The position numbers and the translations under genes are program-made. Shown one piece after another: positions 4,651-64,000 of a stretch of 64,000 bases of DNA (within the stretch, counting starts at the first letter, position 1; each line of letters starts with the position of its first letter). This DNA comes from an uncultured Methanoregulaceae archaeon (GTDB taxonomy: Archaea > Halobacteriota > Methanomicrobia > Methanomicrobiales > Methanospirillaceae). The notes below the pieces were generated by a model, which searched no databases, was not told the DNA's origin, and saw only the letters and a list, made by a program, of their open reading frames with translations. Where the stretch lies: positions 2,496,001 to 2,560,000 of the forward strand of contig OY970061.1 of the NCBI GenBank assembly GCA_963705255.1, in the 5' to 3' direction.

Positions 4651-5775
4651 ATGAAAAAGAACCTGCTGATGTGGGACGAAACTCTCTTCCGCGACCCTGA
4701 AGTTCTGGAGATCGATTATGTGCCCGATCAGTTCGAGTTCCGGGACGACCAGATGCGAGAGCTGGCATTCCAGATCCGGCCAGGCATGAGAGGCGGCAGG
4801 CCCCTGAACACGGTCTGCAAAGGCCTTCCCGGCACGGGGAAGACCACCAGTATCCGGAAACTCTTTTCCGAGATCGAGGAGACGACCAAGAAACTGGTAC
4901 CGGTCTACATCAACTGCCAGATCGATAACACCAAGTTTGCCATCATCTCCCAGATCTACAAAAAGCTCGTGGGGCACCTCCCCCCCGCAAGCGGCACCTC
5001 GTTCAAACAGGTCTTCGATGCCGTGGCACGACACCTGAAGAAGGAAGAGATTGTCCTCCTGGTGGCGCTGGATGATGCAAACTATCTCCTGTACGAAAAC
5101 GAGATCAACAAGGTGCTCTACACACTGCTTCGCTCGCACGAGACGTACGAAGGTACCCGAATCGGTGTCATCGTGATCATCAGCGACATGGATGTTGACC
5201 TCACCCGTGCTGTTGATGCCCGGGTCGCATCGGTCTTCCGCCCGACCGAGATCTACTTCCCGCCCTATGGGGACAAGGAAGTCCGCGAGATCATGAACGC
5301 CCGGGTGATGCAGGGGCTGTTTTCCGGCGTCCTTTCCGAGGAACTCCTCGACCTTGTTGTGGAACAGACCCTGAAAAGCGGGGACCTCAGGGTAGGTATT
5401 GACCTCCTGAAACGGGCGACCCTGAGTGCAGAGAGGGCCGCACGGCGCACTATCGAGCGTGAGGACATCTGCGGAGCTTACGAGATCTCAAAATATCTGC
5501 ACCTTGCGTATACCGTAAAAACCCTCAAGGACGACGAGCGTCACATCCTCAGATCATTTGCAGAGAGGAGTGCAAAGGCGCATGAGATGAACGCGGGTGA
5601 GGTGTTCAAGGCAATCAAGGAACCGCTTGCCATAGGATATACCCGGTTTTATGAGATTGTGAAGAAGATGGATGCTATGCGCCTGATCAACCTAGAGTAC
5701 CGGGAAGGGAAAGGACGGACGCGGGTCATCACGCTCCGCTATGACCCGGCAAAAGTGATCGAATATCTTTCCTGA
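4651..5775 (+). CDS. cdc6: Orc1/Cdc6 replication initiation protein
   Basis: Walker A GLPGTGKT, Walker B VALDDA, GDLR sensor, C-terminal wHTH with GRTR. Confidence 0.93.
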   Translation: MKKNLLMWDETLFRDPEVLEIDYVPDQFEFRDDQMRELAFQIRPGMRGGRPLNTVCKGLPGTGKTTSIRKLFSEIEETTKKLVPVYINCQIDNTKFAIISQIYKKLVGHLPPASGTSFKQVFDAVARHLKKEEIVLLVALDDANYLLYENEINKVLYTLLRSHETYEGTRIGVIVIISDMDVDLTRAVDARVASVFRPTEIYFPPYGDKEVREIMNARVMQGLFSGVLSEELLDLVVEQTLKSGDLRVGIDLLKRATLSAERAARRTIEREDICGAYEISKYLHLAYTVKTLKDDERHILRSFAERSAKAHEMNAGEVFKAIKEPLAIGYTRFYEIVKKMDAMRLINLEYREGKGRTRVITLRYDPAKVIEYLS

Positions 5776-5843: not shown

Positions 5844-6791
5844 ATGCTGAGTGTTAACGAACTGGCACTGGAAATTTTTGATAACCTCGCCGACCTGGCC
5901 GAGGAATTCAACTGCGCTTATCATGAACTAGACAATGGCGCACGGATCGTAGATTGCGGGGTAAGCGTCCGGGGCGGCTACGCAGCCGGGAGGGCTTTCA
6001 CCGAGATCTGCATGGGCGGTCTCGGCGAAGTGAACTTCCGGATGGGACAGATCAAGGAATTCCCAATGCCCTTCATCGACGTGAACACGGACTTCCCGTC
6101 CATCTCGTGCCTCGGCGCGCAGAAGGCCGGATGGACAGTCAAGGTGGGCAACTACTTTGCCATGGGAAGCGGCCCGGCCCGGGCTCTCTCGCTCAAGCCA
6201 AAACACACCTTCGAGGTCATTGAGTATGAAGATGACTACGATTGCGCCGTGATCTGCCTTGAGAGCGACCACCTCCCGAATGCGGATGTGATGGAGAAAG
6301 TCGCGGAAGAATGTCACATCGATGTGGCGAATGTCTGCGCGGTTGTCGCCCCGACCGCTTCGATCGTGGGTTCCATCCAAGTCTCCGGGCGCTGTGTCGA
6401 GACGGCGATCTACAAGCTCAACGAACTCGGGTTTGATACAAAGAAGGTCGTCGCCGCCATGGGAACAGCTCCCGTCCCGCCGGTCAAGAAAGACGCGACG
6501 AAGGCGATGGGAACCACAAACGACGCGACGATTTACCATGGCCGCATCATGCTCACAATGAAGGCACCCGAGATCAAGGATTATCTCGAGAAGATCCCGA
6601 GCAATAAGTCCAAGGGCTACGGCAAGCCGTTCTACGAGATCTTCAAGGAAGCCAAGTTTGACTTCTATCAGATCGACACTTCGCTCTTCTCTCCGGCAGA
6701 GGTTATCATCAACGAGCTTACTGATGGTGTCGTATATCACGTCGGTGCGGTCAACCCCGAAGTCACACTGAAATCGTTCGGGCTCCAGTAA
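5844..6791 (+). CDS. mch: Methenyltetrahydromethanopterin cyclohydrolase
   Basis: MLSVN start; contains QKAGW, MGSGPARAL and MGTTNDA. Confidence 0.95.
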   Translation: MLSVNELALEIFDNLADLAEEFNCAYHELDNGARIVDCGVSVRGGYAAGRAFTEICMGGLGEVNFRMGQIKEFPMPFIDVNTDFPSISCLGAQKAGWTVKVGNYFAMGSGPARALSLKPKHTFEVIEYEDDYDCAVICLESDHLPNADVMEKVAEECHIDVANVCAVVAPTASIVGSIQVSGRCVETAIYKLNELGFDTKKVVAAMGTAPVPPVKKDATKAMGTTNDATIYHGRIMLTMKAPEIKDYLEKIPSNKSKGYGKPFYEIFKEAKFDFYQIDTSLFSPAEVIINELTDGVVYHVGAVNPEVTLKSFGLQ

Positions 6792-6808
6792 CAATACCCT
6801 ATTTTTTG

Positions 6809-7333
6809 GCTCCGAAGAGATCATAAGAAAATTCTCTTAACACTCTTTGGGGCTTCGGCATGTTGAATCTCGAAGAGATGAGACATGAGAAGAACCTGTA
6901 GGGTTCTTCGAACAAAGGCTCCGCAGTCCAAGATTTTCGAATGAAAATCTTCTCCACAGCCTTCGGCTGTCCCCGCCTCTGCGGCAGCTCGAAAATGTCG
7001 AAACATTTTCTCGAAGCATGCCATACCTTTGGCGATGGCTGCATCCCCTATATTGAGATAGTCCCTCAGAAGGTTAGTTAAAATCCCGCCGAAAATGGGG
7101 TCGAAGATTTACTTTATAAATCTTCTCCTCTTCGAGGTCTGAAAACCTCTCAGAGATTCAAGGGAATGCCCCCCTTGTGTTGCTCTCCCTCTGAGGGAGA
7201 CTGCTGTTCCCGAATGGAAGAGCAGGCTTGAGAAGAATTCGGAGAGTTCTTCGATTTGAGAGAGGGGGGTCACACTCATAATCGTTGAAGAATATAAATG
7301 CATCACATGATAAAATAGAATTTCTGCAGAGCC
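6809..7333. other. Hairpin-dense non-coding element, copy 1 (candidate structured ncRNA or ssDNA element)
   Basis: About 12 consecutive inverted repeats; 7195-7333 (minus strand) is homologous to 44686-44880 (plus strand). Confidence 0.7.
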
Positions 7334-7638
7334 TATTTTTCTGCGTTTTTTCAGCTTCTTGATCAAAAAAGAGAGACTGGCAAGGTTATCCCTTTTGAAG
7401 TGAGGGTATTTCCGGATCGCGTAAGGAGAGATTGCCTTTCCCGTAGCAGATCATTTCAGATCGTATCCGTCTCTCGACTTTACGTGTCCTATTCTGGACT
7501 CGCCATCATTGTATCTCGTATCTGAATTAATTTTATTCATGGAGTATCCCACTAATAATTCTCCAGACCAATGACAGACTCATTTGAGAATCCCAGAAAA
7601 TTGTGGATGATTATCAAATTTTCCAAAAAGTGTCTTCA

Positions 7639-43688: not shown

Positions 43689-44609
43689 ATGGAAAGCGGG
43701 TATTTTTCGGAGTGGCTCAAAAGCTACCGGAATTACCTCCGTATGCGAAACTACTCGACCCGCACACTTGACAGCTACGAGCAGGTTATCAAGCATTTCG
43801 CATATTACGTCTGGTTGCGTCGGCATACCGAAGTGTCAAAACTGGTGATATACTGGAAAGATTTTGAAAAAGCCAGGCTTGATACCGATGTGGATGTAAC
43901 TCCAGTTATGGTCAATGATTTTCTCTCGTTTGTATCCTCGATGCGGACCTATAAGCCAAAAACATTCCATCGCATCATCTCGACACTCAGTTCGTTCTAC
44001 CGGTTCCTTTATACCCAGGGCGCAGTTACATCAAACCCCCTGACAGGGATTGATCGGCCACGGATTAAACAGCAGGAGATCAAGTACCTGAAACATAACC
44101 AGGTATTACGCCTGATCGAATCAATCGAGGATCCCCGCGATAAACTCATTGTGAGGACCATTTATGCTACGGGAGTACGGGTATCGGAGCTCTGCAATAT
44201 GAATATCGAGGATATTGACTTCGATGAACATACCATCCGTATACGCGGAAAAGGAGACAAGATGCGGATCGTTTTTGTCGATGACGATACCCTGGCAGAG
44301 ATTCTCAAATTCATTGGAAACCGTCTTGCCGGGCCCCTCTTTATCGGGCAACAGGGAAAACATATCTCCTCCCGTGCCATCCAGCATATCTTCAAGCATT
44401 ATGCTCCTTCAGGGATCACTCCCCATAAAATCCGGCACAGCTATGCAAGTGAACTCTATAAACGTTCGAAGAATCTCAGGGTCGTCCAGGAAAACCTGGG
44501 GCATACCTCTATCAAGACTACGGAGATCTATCTGCATACTGATATCGATGAGAGAAGGCAGGTATATCAGCAATATTTCCCTTTGTTCGGTTCGAATGAA
44601 AAGGCATAA
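43689..44609 (+). CDS. xerA: XerA/XerC-type tyrosine recombinase
   Basis: SAM-like N-terminal domain; TGVRVSEL (R), GKGDK (K), HKIRH (HxxR), LGH, TTEIY (Y). Confidence 0.9.
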   Translation: MESGYFSEWLKSYRNYLRMRNYSTRTLDSYEQVIKHFAYYVWLRRHTEVSKLVIYWKDFEKARLDTDVDVTPVMVNDFLSFVSSMRTYKPKTFHRIISTLSSFYRFLYTQGAVTSNPLTGIDRPRIKQQEIKYLKHNQVLRLIESIEDPRDKLIVRTIYATGVRVSELCNMNIEDIDFDEHTIRIRGKGDKMRIVFVDDDTLAEILKFIGNRLAGPLFIGQQGKHISSRAIQHIFKHYAPSGITPHKIRHSYASELYKRSKNLRVVQENLGHTSIKTTEIYLHTDIDERRQVYQQYFPLFGSNEKA

Positions 44610-44685
44610 AAAAGGGTGATCGTGCCGTATTCTGGTGATTTTTCCGAACTGATAATCTGATAGAGATTTTAAGTGATCCTCTTTG

Positions 44686-44880
44686 GGCGCTGTAGAAATC
44701 CTATTATCTTGTGTGATTCGCTTACATTTTTCAACGGTTATGAGAGTGACCCCCTCTCTCACGTCGAAGAACTCTGACGAGTTCTTCTTATTCTCGAGGT
44801 ACTGATGAACCTCTTCGAAAATCGAAGAACCTGCCGGTTTTTCTCCAGCCTGCTCTTCCCTTCGGGAACAGCAGTCTCCC
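44686..44880 (+). other. Hairpin element, copy 2 (homologous to 7195-7333 minus)
   Basis: Shares TTCAACG.TTATGAG.GTGACCCCCTCTCTCA..TCGAAGAACTCT and AGCCTGCTCTTCC.TTCGGGAACAGCAGTCTCCC with copy 1; carries two extra hairpins. Confidence 0.7.
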
Positions 44881-46192
44881 CCACGAGCGTCTATAATGAA
44901 AGCCGATGATTTCGACAGAACCCCGCCCCACTTTGTATAAATTTTAAGCAATCCGCCCCATGGTTTTCTTACCTATAATTGCTCCAATAATATGATAGAT
45001 CCTGTTTTGATCATGTATTGAGAGATTTTGATATTTACGCTATTTCTCGTCGTAGTTTTCCAATTAATTGGTACCAATTATTTTACTATAAACCGTATGA
45101 TGCTATATCTTAAAATTACTTCGGAACTGATGAACCGCTCTTGTATAAGCAGAATGAAAATGCTGTCGATCTAAATTTTTAAAGAATTTTCACTCATTCT
45201 ATTTTACCAGAAAATCATAAGAATTTGATAAAAACATAAGAATTTGAAAAAATCCGGAAATAGCACGTCTCTGACAAGTCCAGAGTGCATTACATCAGTT
45301 TCCAATTAATAAGGAAAAATTCACCGGAGATTCTGTTTTATCAGGATCTCACCTCTATCAGAGAACATCCTTCTCTGATCAAACATAATTATCGATTGAT
45401 AAAATTCAAAATTCCGATATTCCCGTCATAAAAATGGATTTCCAAATATTTGTAATTTCGTTTGTTTCATCGATAGCAATCAAATCCGATTTATCTGAAT
45501 TTTTTCAGATTGCCGGATTGTGGATTATGCATTCCAATAATTCCATTTTTAAGAATTGCTTGAAAAATTGAATAAAATTTCAAATTTTTCTATTTATTCG
45601 AATAAAAATTCTATTATCAAATGTTCAGATTATCAAATTTTCGTCGATACATTTTCGACAATGAAATTATTCCAGATTTCACTAATCTGTAGTGACCAAT
45701 TGGATTTCCAATCTTTTGGAATTAATAATTGTCCACAATAAAAATTTTTATAGAATTAAAATATTCCATTTTTTCCAATCAAACAACGATAATATTACAA
45801 TAAAATTTTTTGGATATCTCAATGTCTCATCTGAAATTTGTATCAAATCCAATGATCCAAAATTATTCTAATTCATCGTCCGGATATAAGGAAATATAAT
45901 CTTTTTAAATTCAGCTTTCACTTTTCAAAACTAAAAAATTCGATTTTTTATTCGAATTTATTGGAGAATACAGATGAATTTTTTGTTAATTCAATTCATT
46001 ACTGTATATCAAGAAATTTCACGATCACTTCCGAAAAATACGTAGCTTTATTTTCATTTGACTACGAGGTAAACTATCAAACCGTCTGAAAATATCACTC
46101 CGGACCTCCTACCGGAACAGGGTCCCCAATTCCAAAATGGATTTGTATGCAACCGCAATACTTTTTTCTTGTTCTGCCGACATATTGGAGCG

Positions 46193-46654
46193 ATGCATAT
46201 GGCAAAGATCCAGAAACGAAAATACGAAAAAACGGATGATGAGGAAATCGGCCTTGTCCTCCAGTGCAATGACAGCCATGAATTTTACGAAAAGTACCGG
46301 GAGATGTTTCCAAACCGGAAAAAAGGCATAGACAGTATCAGCAAGATCTGGAAACGCCGCAGCGAATTTTTAAAAAAGCAGCAGGCAGAAACGCAGTCTT
46401 CCGAATCAATAGATAGATCGGCACATGAATTTGAAAATCTCGTATCAGCACAAAACAAAATACTGGCCGAATTGTCCACAGTGATGAAAGAACAGCTCAA
46501 GGTTAGCAGGGAAATCCTTGCGCGTCTGCCAAAACAGATTCAGAAACCAGAGGAGCATACCCAGAAACCTGTGGAGATACGACAGCCCGAACAAAAAGAA
46601 CACGCAAAGAAACCGGGTACGGAAAGACCCAGTGATATAATGATTGGGTCCTGA
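46193..46654 (+). CDS. Hypothetical protein (basic helical N-terminal domain + coiled coil)
   Basis: ATG preceded by GGAG; charged N-terminal helices, heptad-like LVSAQNKILAELSTVMKEQLKV, low-complexity tail. Confidence 0.7.
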   Translation: MHMAKIQKRKYEKTDDEEIGLVLQCNDSHEFYEKYREMFPNRKKGIDSISKIWKRRSEFLKKQQAETQSSESIDRSAHEFENLVSAQNKILAELSTVMKEQLKVSREILARLPKQIQKPEEHTQKPVEIRQPEQKEHAKKPGTERPSDIMIGS

Positions 46655-46868: not shown

Positions 46869-46941
46869 ACCCCCGTAGTGTAGCGGTCAATCATGCAGGA
46901 CTTTGGATCCGGCGACACCAGTTCGAATCTGGTCGGGGGTA
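46869..46941 (+). tRNA. tRNA-Gln (TTG)
   Basis: Acceptor stem ACCCCCG/CGGGGGT, D-arm TAGCGGTCAATCA, anticodon loop CT-TTG-GA, T-loop GTTCGAATC, followed by a T-run. Confidence 0.93.
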
Positions 46942-47265: not shown

Positions 47266-48018
47266 TTATTCCAGGATAGCAAGGAGATTATCACAGCAGG
47301 AACTATCAATGATCCCGGGCGCAGAAAAAACCGGGTCGGTCTGAACCCTTGCCAGTCTCCGCATCTCTTTTTTCGAAAGGCGGAAGCCTTCTTTTTCCCT
47401 CATGGAAGTACGGTCCAGGATTGCATTTCGCAGGGATGTGGCAGCGATGTTGAATGCCGCGTTCACATCTGCATGTGCCACGAACCCGCAGTGCGGGCAT
47501 TCAAAACGCTTGCGCATCCTCCGCCCGAAACTCCCGCAGCGGCTGCAGCGTTTCGATGTATATTCCGGATTGATGTAGATTACCGGAATGCCTCTTTCTT
47601 TCGCCCGTTTCTCAACCTGGCGTTGGAGCGAGAAGAACGATCCATTTTCAAAAGAGAACATGAACGGATCGGAGATATTTTTTTGATTCGAGTAACGTGC
47701 CGAGAAGAGTCTCTCGAATTTTATACCGGAACCGAGCGATTCCGCAAAGGAAACGATCTGTCTGCAGATGGCATGAAGGGCTGACTTGAATCTTTTCCGT
47801 TCGCGACTTTTGAATTTTTTAAGTTTCCAGAGTTTGCCTTCCCTGTAGAATTTCGTACAGTTTTTCAAAGAATGGCTGTGGACATAGTGGATATTTTTCC
47901 CCAGTTTCATTACTTTCCCGCTGTATGGGTCGGCAGCGACGGCCACATGGCCGGTCGTGTTCAAATCAACACCGATCCAGCGGGTCATGAAGAGTGTGGC
48001 TTGATGAAATCTGATCAC
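47266..48018 (-). CDS. tnpB: N-terminally truncated TnpB/Cas12f-like protein (RuvC + Zn ribbon only)
   Basis: WIGVDLN (RuvC-I D), KFERL (RuvC-II E), PEYTSKRCSRCG..CPHCG, HADVNAAFNIA (RuvC-III D). Confidence 0.85.
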   Translation of the reverse strand: MIRFHQATLFMTRWIGVDLNTTGHVAVAADPYSGKVMKLGKNIHYVHSHSLKNCTKFYREGKLWKLKKFKSRERKRFKSALHAICRQIVSFAESLGSGIKFERLFSARYSNQKNISDPFMFSFENGSFFSLQRQVEKRAKERGIPVIYINPEYTSKRCSRCGSFGRRMRKRFECPHCGFVAHADVNAAFNIAATSLRNAILDRTSMREKEGFRLSKKEMRRLARVQTDPVFSAPGIIDSSCCDNLLAILE

Positions 48019-63253: not shown

Positions 63254-63578
63254 AATTGCCAGATCAGGACCTGAGGATTTTTCTAAATTGCCACCAACTG
63301 ATCCGGTAATTTTTCTAAATCGTCACATCCGGACCTGACAATTATTTTTAATTGCCACCTCCGGATCCGGGAATTTTAAAAAATTGTCACCAACCGATCT
63401 GGCAATTATTCTAAATTGTCACCTCCGGACCCGGTAATTATTTTTTATTGGCAGTACTGCGGGAGGGGCACTCCGCCGGAGACAGCGCGGATTTCCCGGA
63501 TTTTCCCGGCAACATTGCCGCAAACCGATCCGGCAATTTTTCTTAATCGTCACCTTCCGGATCCGGAAATTTTTCAAA
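63254..63578. repeat. Degenerate tandem array of 32-bp imperfect palindromes
   Basis: Unit starts at 63254, 63286, 63318, 63350, 63382, 63414 and 63446 (partial), then 63513 and 63545; consensus about AATTGYCACCTCCGGATCCGGYAATTWTTCTA. Confidence 0.85.
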
Positions 63579-64000
63579 AAGATTCTTGTCCGCGAGCTTG
63601 CGGTTGGCGAACCCGGGTGGTGAGAACCGAACGGTTACACGAACCTGCATGCTTGGTGAGGTGCCCCCGAAACAGGATCGCCCCTTCTTTATCACGGGGG
63701 CAACCTGCCGGACGGTAAGTCTCCCATGTTCCATTCTCCGACGGAGACTTCTCAGGCAGGATCCGGCTTTGGAAATTTCCAGTGGAAGTGGTGCCAACGC
63801 CCGGCGAAATCCCTCTTTTAAATCAGTATTTTGGCAAAATCTTCATTTTAAGCGGGAAAAAACCGTGCAATTTAGCGGCCTTATACGGACCGCGAAAAAC
63901 CGGCAGTCTGCAGGCTGTCCGGGAACCCGGCACGGCCCCGGAGGGCCATTATGGCCGAAATTAAAAGGGGGTCCTGTAAGGGGTTGGAAAAAACAGGTTT

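Follow-up and report, generated by a model that had tools for sequence, protein, structure and literature searches.

MITE-type elements with a hairpin-mosaic interior, very probably moved by an IS5-family transposase, in an uncultured Methanoregulaceae archaeon

The MITEHsal elements of Halobacterium have been assigned to their IS class by the homology of their ends (PMC7002104), and homology to transposon ends is the criterion for haloarchaeal MITEs in the accessible part of that article. The archaeal MITEs treated in the accessible part of a review (PMC10969869) come from Sulfolobus, Halobacterium, Haloquadratum and Desulfurococcus, with no methanogen of the group considered here among them. 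In bacteria, two further kinds of repeat are built from small folding units: the pneumococcal BOX elements, in which a boxA is followed by a variable number of boxB and then by boxC (PMC3049150), and the REP/BIME mosaics, which include GTAG- and CGTC-tagged REPs (PMC3733652, PMC2817692). A literature search, which missed most subscription journals, found no published description of the family reported below or of REP-like repeats in Methanoregula.

The window analyzed here is a stretch of 64,000 nucleotides from a genome of 2,600,650 bases in one contig with 54.6% G+C; window coordinates are genome coordinates minus 2,496,000. Two inverted copies of a hairpin-bearing sequence in this window, one near cdc6 and one directly after a xerA-like gene, had been put forward as the best candidate for an undescribed system. 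Our analysis makes it very probable that both are MITEs moved by an IS5-family transposase, with an interior that is a mosaic of hairpins, and thus selfish DNA.

The original prediction aligned 44686-44880 (+) with 7333-7195 (-), and this correspondence is real: BLAST matches 44686-44788 to 7333-7231 (-) with 80.8% identity and 44819-44883 to 7257-7192 (-) with 86.4% identity, and the region 44640-44940 gives 114 alignments at about 85 loci in the genome, far above chance. The limits first given to both copies were nevertheless too short, as repeat coverage and terminal inverted repeats reveal. In the coverage profile of 44640-44940 a sharp rise at 44683-44686 is followed by a drop at 44914-44923 and, together with the inverted repeats and the orthologue in the sister species G041, this defines copy 2 as a 242-bp element at 44686-44927 (+). 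Copy 1 is repeated DNA from approximately 7338 down to approximately 6805 (coverage profile of 6780-7620), well past the earlier limit at 7195; it is a complete 526-bp element of the same family at 6808-7333 (-), with its leader end at 7333 and its tail end at 6808. The insertion of roughly 55 bp and two modules that had been noticed in copy 2 corresponds to an extra block of 56 bp (44785-44840) with two hairpins inside, and hairpin types similar to both are indeed found farther along copy 1. Both copies are thus below about 600 bp and devoid of a transposase gene; the ORFs that overlap them (7109-7366 and 44409-44951) have no Pfam match. The parts of the two copies are as follows.

44678..44685, + strand: left target-site duplication of copy 2, CCTCTTTG, differing from CCACTTTG at one of 8 positions; the G041 orthologue makes the pairing clear
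44686..44700, + strand: left terminal inverted repeat of copy 2, GGCGCTGTAGAAATC; family consensus GGCTCTGTAGAAATC
44686..44762, + strand: conserved leader, comprising the inverted repeat, a TTATAT-like motif (TTACAT here) and a GAGAG..CTCTC hairpin; 30 BLAST hits
44764..44788, + strand: hairpin module A, stem GAAGAACTC / GAGTTCTTC, loop TGAC, from folding; 63-67 matching places in the genome
44789..44821, + strand: hairpin module B, GAGGT..ACCTC, loop with CTGATGA; lacking at this point in copy 1; about 43-45 matching places
44822..44845, + strand: hairpin module C, GAAGAACC / GGTTTTTC, loop TGCC; lacking at this point in copy 1; 35-51 matching places
44846..44882, + strand: hairpin module D, CTGCTCTTCC..GGGAACAGCAG, TTCG loop, from folding; about 39-43 matching places
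44883..44927, + strand: tail and right terminal inverted repeat (44908-44927) of copy 2; 13-18 matching places
44928..44935, + strand: right target-site duplication of copy 2, CCACTTTG, from the G041 comparison
7319-7333 and 6808-6822, element on the - strand: inverted repeats of copy 1, from a 15-mer scan
6800..6807, + strand: target-site duplication of copy 1, TATTTTTT, differing from TATTTTTC at one of 8 positions
7334..7341, + strand: target-site duplication of copy 1, TATTTTTC, partner of TATTTTTT

The proposal of a conserved leader followed by a variable array of hairpin modules agrees with what we find, namely a leader of about 77 bp and a variable set of hairpins, to which a conserved end has to be added. 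Used as a query, the leader gives 30 BLAST hits in its own genome, of which 23 start sharply at the end of the element; coverage by own-genome BLAST puts the number of places matching it at 25-40, and it is present at about 75% identity in many congeners. Alignment of the left borders of the 23 leader copies yields the sharp common start GGCTCTGTAGAAATCC. The tails of many copies, once aligned, all end in ..GATTTCTCCAGAGCC, and their common end ..GATGATTTCTCCAGAGCC is the reverse complement of the leader start. This terminal inverted repeat of approximately 15 bp (consensus GGCTCTGTAGAAATC) occurs at 60 sites of the genome with at most two mismatches, against 2 in a reversed-genome control. 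Its two occurrences in copy 2 are GGCGCTGTAGAAATC and GATTTCGACAGA..GCC, and those in copy 1 are GGCTCTGCAGAAATT and GATCTCTTCGGAGCC.

Inward-facing inverted repeats lying 100-800 bp apart form 51 pairs in the genome. The 8-mers that flank them are identical at 8/8 positions in 8 pairs, at 7/8 in 9 and at 6/8 in 8, so that 25/51 reach at least 6/8; in the controls, where either 8-mer was shifted by 8 bp, only 0/51 and 2/51 do so. The target-site duplication is hence 8 bp long, with 7/8 bases identical at both copies in the window. For copy 2 the pairing was initially obscured: an initial scan placed the element end at 44922, the flanks then agreeing in 3/8 bases, and the 7/8 agreement appeared after recognition of a 5-bp insertion at 44920-44924 in the right end. 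The G041 orthologue is without these 5 bases and shows the left flank CCTCTTTG and the end GATTTCGACAGAGCC directly before CCACTTTG, from which the limits 44686-44927 and the duplications 44678-44685 and 44928-44935 follow. The duplicated 8-mers contain 76% A+T compared with 45% genome-wide, and elements of the family measure 135-580 bp. Of 181 linked repeat islands in the genome, 123 have no recognisable end at up to four mismatches, and many hairpin-bearing islands are among them; a part of the repeat network is therefore not explained by MITE transposition alone.

Transposable elements with matching ends are present in the congeners. ISL3 and IS1595 elements have GGCTCT-type ends and 8-bp duplications, yet both were rejected as partners: PF01610 and PF12762 have no match in the genome, and six near-full-length ISL3 transposase loci of congeners, of ten ISL3 loci scanned, lack such ends. 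One scanned ISL3 locus of G043 also contains an element of 996 bp that has TGCTCTGTAGAAAAC at its ends and is flanked by a perfect duplication of 8 bp; the product of its 306-aa ORF matches Pfam DDE_Tnp_1 (PF01609, E=2.9e-18) and the NCBIfam entry NF033579 for the IS5 family (190.5 bits, cut-off 140). G043 carries 21 copies of this element encoding identical proteins, so that the element is probably active there. A search of the genus with the G043 protein recovered relatives in 67/108 genomes at E<=1e-20. This lineage of about 996 bp, a sister of the GGC-end lineage described next, has TGCTCTGTAGAAA ends; among 30 loci fetched, 23 have paired ends 941-1293 bp apart, and perfect 8-bp duplications are found at 10 of these. 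Proteins of a second lineage, with GGC ends, are 47-50% identical to those of the first. Eight of its loci were fetched, of which six (in G021, G019, G062, G056, G048 and G067) contain elements of 1007-1008 bp with GGCTCTGTAGAA.. ends, the first bases of which agree with those of the elements in the window, and two gave no end pair; the duplications are perfect in G021, G019, G062 and G056. This partner IS is about 1 kb long with a single ORF reading into its right end. The G056 copy encodes an intact protein of 301 aa that scores 207 bits (cut-off 140) on NF033579, "IS5 family transposase"; among annotated sequences it is nearest to IS5-family genes of Methanomethylovorans (57% identity) and haloarchaea (about 32%). 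This lineage may belong to the "ISH1 group" of ISfinder; the ISH1 group of the IS5 family makes 8-bp duplications. Two long inverted-repeat pairs in the genome under study (1334 and 1085 bp) are chance pairs around ordinary genes.

Since the ends are homologous, which is the criterion used for haloarchaeal MITEs in the portion of PMC7002104 available to us, the element can be placed as a MITE of the GGC-end IS5-family lineage; the same ends with the same 8-bp duplication flank the approximately 1-kb IS in congeners, only remnants of which persist here. Several hallmarks of a MITE are present: small size, no gene, inverted repeats, a duplication of fixed length, dispersed copies, and ends homologous to those of an IS with the same duplication. 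The copies are accordingly complete elements of a known kind, with matching IS in congeners, and not the undescribed system that had been suggested. Same-family MITEs with perfect duplications also occur in congeners, e.g., at locus L039 of G008. In mechanistic terms, a DDE transposase supplied in trans by the IS would have inserted the non-coding element into A/T-rich intergenic DNA, mostly downstream of genes; this role of the IS5-family enzyme is deduced from the congeners. Genome-wide searches found no intact partner transposase in the genome itself and, as it holds only decayed IS remnants, the copies here are probably now immobile.

One of these remnants (genome positions 1987570-1988096) is an IS5-family transposase interrupted by a frameshift and several stops; its identity to the G056 protein is 54%, and it ends exactly in a GGC-type inverted repeat and directly follows a membrane-protein gene. 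A transposase fragment of 58 aa lies at 1149232-1149405. The existence of decayed IS5-type remnants with the same kind of end could suggest that the two copies are themselves internal-deletion remnants of a full IS, or else fragments of a decayed gene duplication. This is very hard to reconcile with the data and we consider it highly improbable, because the element and the IS have only the terminal 13-15 bp in common, the interior being without similarity to the IS, because neither a consistent reading frame nor a Pfam match is left, and because both ends and the target duplications are intact.

The interior of the copies does not stem from the IS and consists of a mosaic of short G+C-rich hairpins with a constant stem base GAAGA...TCTTC. 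That whole modules differ between copies, as the original prediction held, is borne out by the leader and tail alignments and by an alignment of 7 copies, in which a nested series can be followed: leader, A-type hairpin and tail (159 bp); the same with D (183 bp); with B and C added (239-242 bp, the form of copy 2); with a further block E (298 bp); and with A-B duplicated (349 bp). The breakpoints of the modules in this alignment fall inside the shared arms GAAGAAC/GTTCTTC. Neighbouring hairpins carry the same 7-9-bp arms as direct repeats, so that replication slippage, unequal recombination and gene conversion could delete, duplicate or swap whole hairpins and thereby make copy 1 and copy 2 differ in their modules. 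The breakpoint positions suggest gain and loss by slippage or unequal recombination between the repeated arms, in addition to conversion between copies. An example of the latter may be hairpin C of copy 2, which in G041 reads GAAGAACCC-TTCG-GGGTTCTTC: the changes relative to the genome under study are clustered and turn the wobble-containing stem of copy 2 into a perfect stem, a variant frequent at other places in the genome; the pattern resembles gene conversion.

G041 is approximately 95% identical in DNA and has both copies at the same sites with the same modules, which indicates that the turnover of modules is not fast. No precise empty site was found; in distant congeners mch is separated from the DUF5803 gene by a short spacer of 212-252 bp that does not align. 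Contigs of four metagenome DNA runs on 44000-46200 stop inside the repeat, with extra depth from other copies, and none of them bridges an empty site at copy 2; a joint that skips 56 bases comes from copies without modules B and C and is not assignable to the copy 2 locus. Repeats of this kind explain the assembly breaks at such sites in genomes of the genus. At 63255-63579 of the window, a 325-bp A+T-rich block of periodic units of about 33-37 bp (..TTGCCACC..CCGGATCCGG..AATT..) belongs to a separate 10-island repeat family and is missing at the orthologous G041 site (16-bp gap). Outside the window, genome positions 2427000-2472000 form a repeat-dense region of 17 islands, the flanks of which have no counterpart on the syntenic G041 contig; this region may be variable or horizontally acquired.

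The hairpins themselves are not confined to the MITEs. Counting every constant GAAGA/TCTTC base followed by at least 3 further complementary pairs, 179 hairpins are found genome-wide, compared with 2/269 in a direct-repeat control, and their 44 distal stems (both strands counted) are different but all still complementary. Only 39 of the 179 belong to complete elements, while 87 are in other islands of the linked network, 4 in islands not belonging to it and 49 away from any repeat island. Crude ORFs contain only 22 of the hairpins. They occur in clusters and in both orientations, as do the high-copy imperfect palindromes of 20-40 bp that make up REPs and BIMEs. In 139/179 the flanks are asymmetric, with NGTC at the 5' side and TCCA or TCCT at the 3' side, which recalls the tagged REP design outlined in the accessible part of PMC3733652. 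The exact hairpin pattern has 87 occurrences in the genome under study. Four sampled congeners have 0-2 each, one genome from a different genus of the family has 13, and the 68 searched genomes of other families in the order have none. In four copies, moreover, a two-hairpin block interrupts hairpin D. From these observations one could argue that it is the short hairpin that proliferates, as the equivalent in archaea of bacterial REPs, with arrays as in BIMEs and with the inverted-repeat elements as just one vehicle. We regard this as unlikely. No RAYT/Y1 transposase (PF01797) was matched at E<=0.01 in the 2.6-Mb single-contig genome, matches being obtained in control genomes. The commonest 5' tetranucleotides of the 139 oriented hairpins are AGTC (46), GGTC (22) and ATTC (15), not the defining GTAG or CGTC, the latter being absent from the ten commonest. 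The 172 kb that align with G041 contain 21 indels measuring 12 bp or more, none of them a hairpin unit, and the inverted-repeat ends with their 8-bp duplications would be left unaccounted for. Only tentatively, then, might the approximately 180 GAAGA-stem hairpins with NGTC/TCCW flanks be seen as an archaeal REP equivalent spreading without RAYT, the arrays of which might act on transcripts between convergent genes. Such an effect, e.g., the definition or protection of transcript 3' ends, might then be the reason why the arrays are kept there. A lineage-specific burst of REP-like hairpins in a RAYT-less archaeon is of modest wider interest for the origin of selfish palindromes outside bacteria.

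Besides the hairpin-bearing repeats there is a second large G+C-rich mosaic repeat family (..GATGAACGCCGCCGCC..GAGAGGCCCTGAGGCGGGG..), forming a component of 78 islands, for example at genome positions 174328-174486, 393118-393299 and 569078-569230; it sometimes has GAAGA hairpins inserted inside, as at 533181-533419.

Returning to the MITE as the mobile unit, its distribution relative to genes was analyzed with a crude map of 2448 ORFs of at least 100 aa that cover 82% of the genome. Of the 181 linked islands, 118 are mostly intergenic. The 26 complete oriented copies lie in 12 convergent, 12 tandem and 2 divergent gaps, compared with 20%, 60% and 20% of gaps genome-wide, an excess of convergent gaps with p=0.0026, and in 18/26 the leader points towards a gene 3' end. 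Such a placement is the usual picture of insertions tolerated downstream of genes. The leader had also been read as a possible promoter: its conservation stands, and what is left of the promoter is a conserved TTATAT-like motif. This motif, GCTTATAYTCT, is shared by the two leader subfamilies, where it precedes the first hairpin by about 25 nt, and, from its sequence, could be a TATA box, which raises the question of whether the family consists of small structured RNA genes, transcribed from an archaeal promoter in the leader and having the hairpin array as transcript. The copies do fold far more stably than shuffled sequences (z -4.0 for copy 2 and -5.8 for copy 1), and G.T outnumber A.C mismatches 8:2 in stems on the leader strand. 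On the other hand, the opposite strand of copy 2 reaches a similar stability (z -3.4), as is to be expected of DNA palindromes, and the 8:2 asymmetry is not significant (p=0.11), the copies not being independent. No Rfam family reaches its gathering score in either copy, permissive scans giving one weak match at chance level for each (E 0.61 and 0.42), and in the whole window only a tRNA at 46869-46941 does so. With most leaders directed at a gene 3' end, not at a gene start, and the box degraded to TTACAT in copy 2, RNA genes appear quite improbable.

Both copies neighbour genes of chromosome maintenance, cdc6 (4651-5775) and the xerA-like recombinase gene (43689-44609), and a functional link had been envisaged. 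None is apparent: about 85 matching loci and 181 linked islands are spread over 2.6 Mb, so that two copies in a window of 64 kb are to be expected, and the genes beside copies across the family are unrelated. The xerA-like recombinase is a conserved chromosomal gene, being present in 59/60 searched congeners, among which the element lies beside it only in G041. The adjacency to cdc6 and xerA is thus coincidental. On the other side of copy 2, a very A+T-rich stretch of 1.2 kb (44936-46168) without convincing ORF separates it from a conserved ORF (46169-46654), beyond which lies the above tRNA; the stretch contains scattered TTCCAAT/ATTGGAA motifs and is conserved in G041 except for an 85-88-bp indel. 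Farther on, at 47266-48018 (-), a 250-aa ORF retains only the C-terminal Cas12f1-like/TnpB TNB domain (PF07282), by which it is probably a truncated TnpB; no sequence link was found between this ORF and the hairpin elements.

Recognition of the copies as MITEs removes a false lead, the element not being a new system tied to replication or chromosome resolution, and documents a MITE family with its IS5-family partner in a genus of peat and sediment methanogens. Compared with the systems mentioned at the outset, the hairpins resemble REPs in being short, with 8-9-bp stems and 4-nt loops, in having an unpaired tag at one flank and a short tail at the opposite one, and in forming high-copy intergenic mosaics in both orientations. 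They differ from REPs and BIMEs in their AGTC or GGTC tag, in the lack of a detectable RAYT or Y1 transposase and in that the mosaics lie between inverted repeats and have 8-bp duplications, both absent from REPs and BIMEs. With the BOX elements the family shares conserved end modules around a variable number of self-folding internal modules, a wide variation in size and MITE-like features; there is no sequence relation, the host is an archaeon, and several distinct hairpin types in both orientations take the place of a tandem array of one unit. An IS5-family IS with 8-bp duplications encodes its transposase, whereas the copies in the window encode nothing and share with it the terminal bases only. 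There is also a likeness to the prokaryotic MITEs mobilised in trans, such as MITEHsal, from which the family is set apart by a matching IS that survives intact only in congeners and by an interior of G+C-rich hairpins instead of A+T-rich filler or an IS deletion product. Like those MITEs, it consists of small, non-coding, multi-copy intergenic elements whose inverted repeats match an autonomous IS and whose target duplication has the same length as that of the IS (8 bp).
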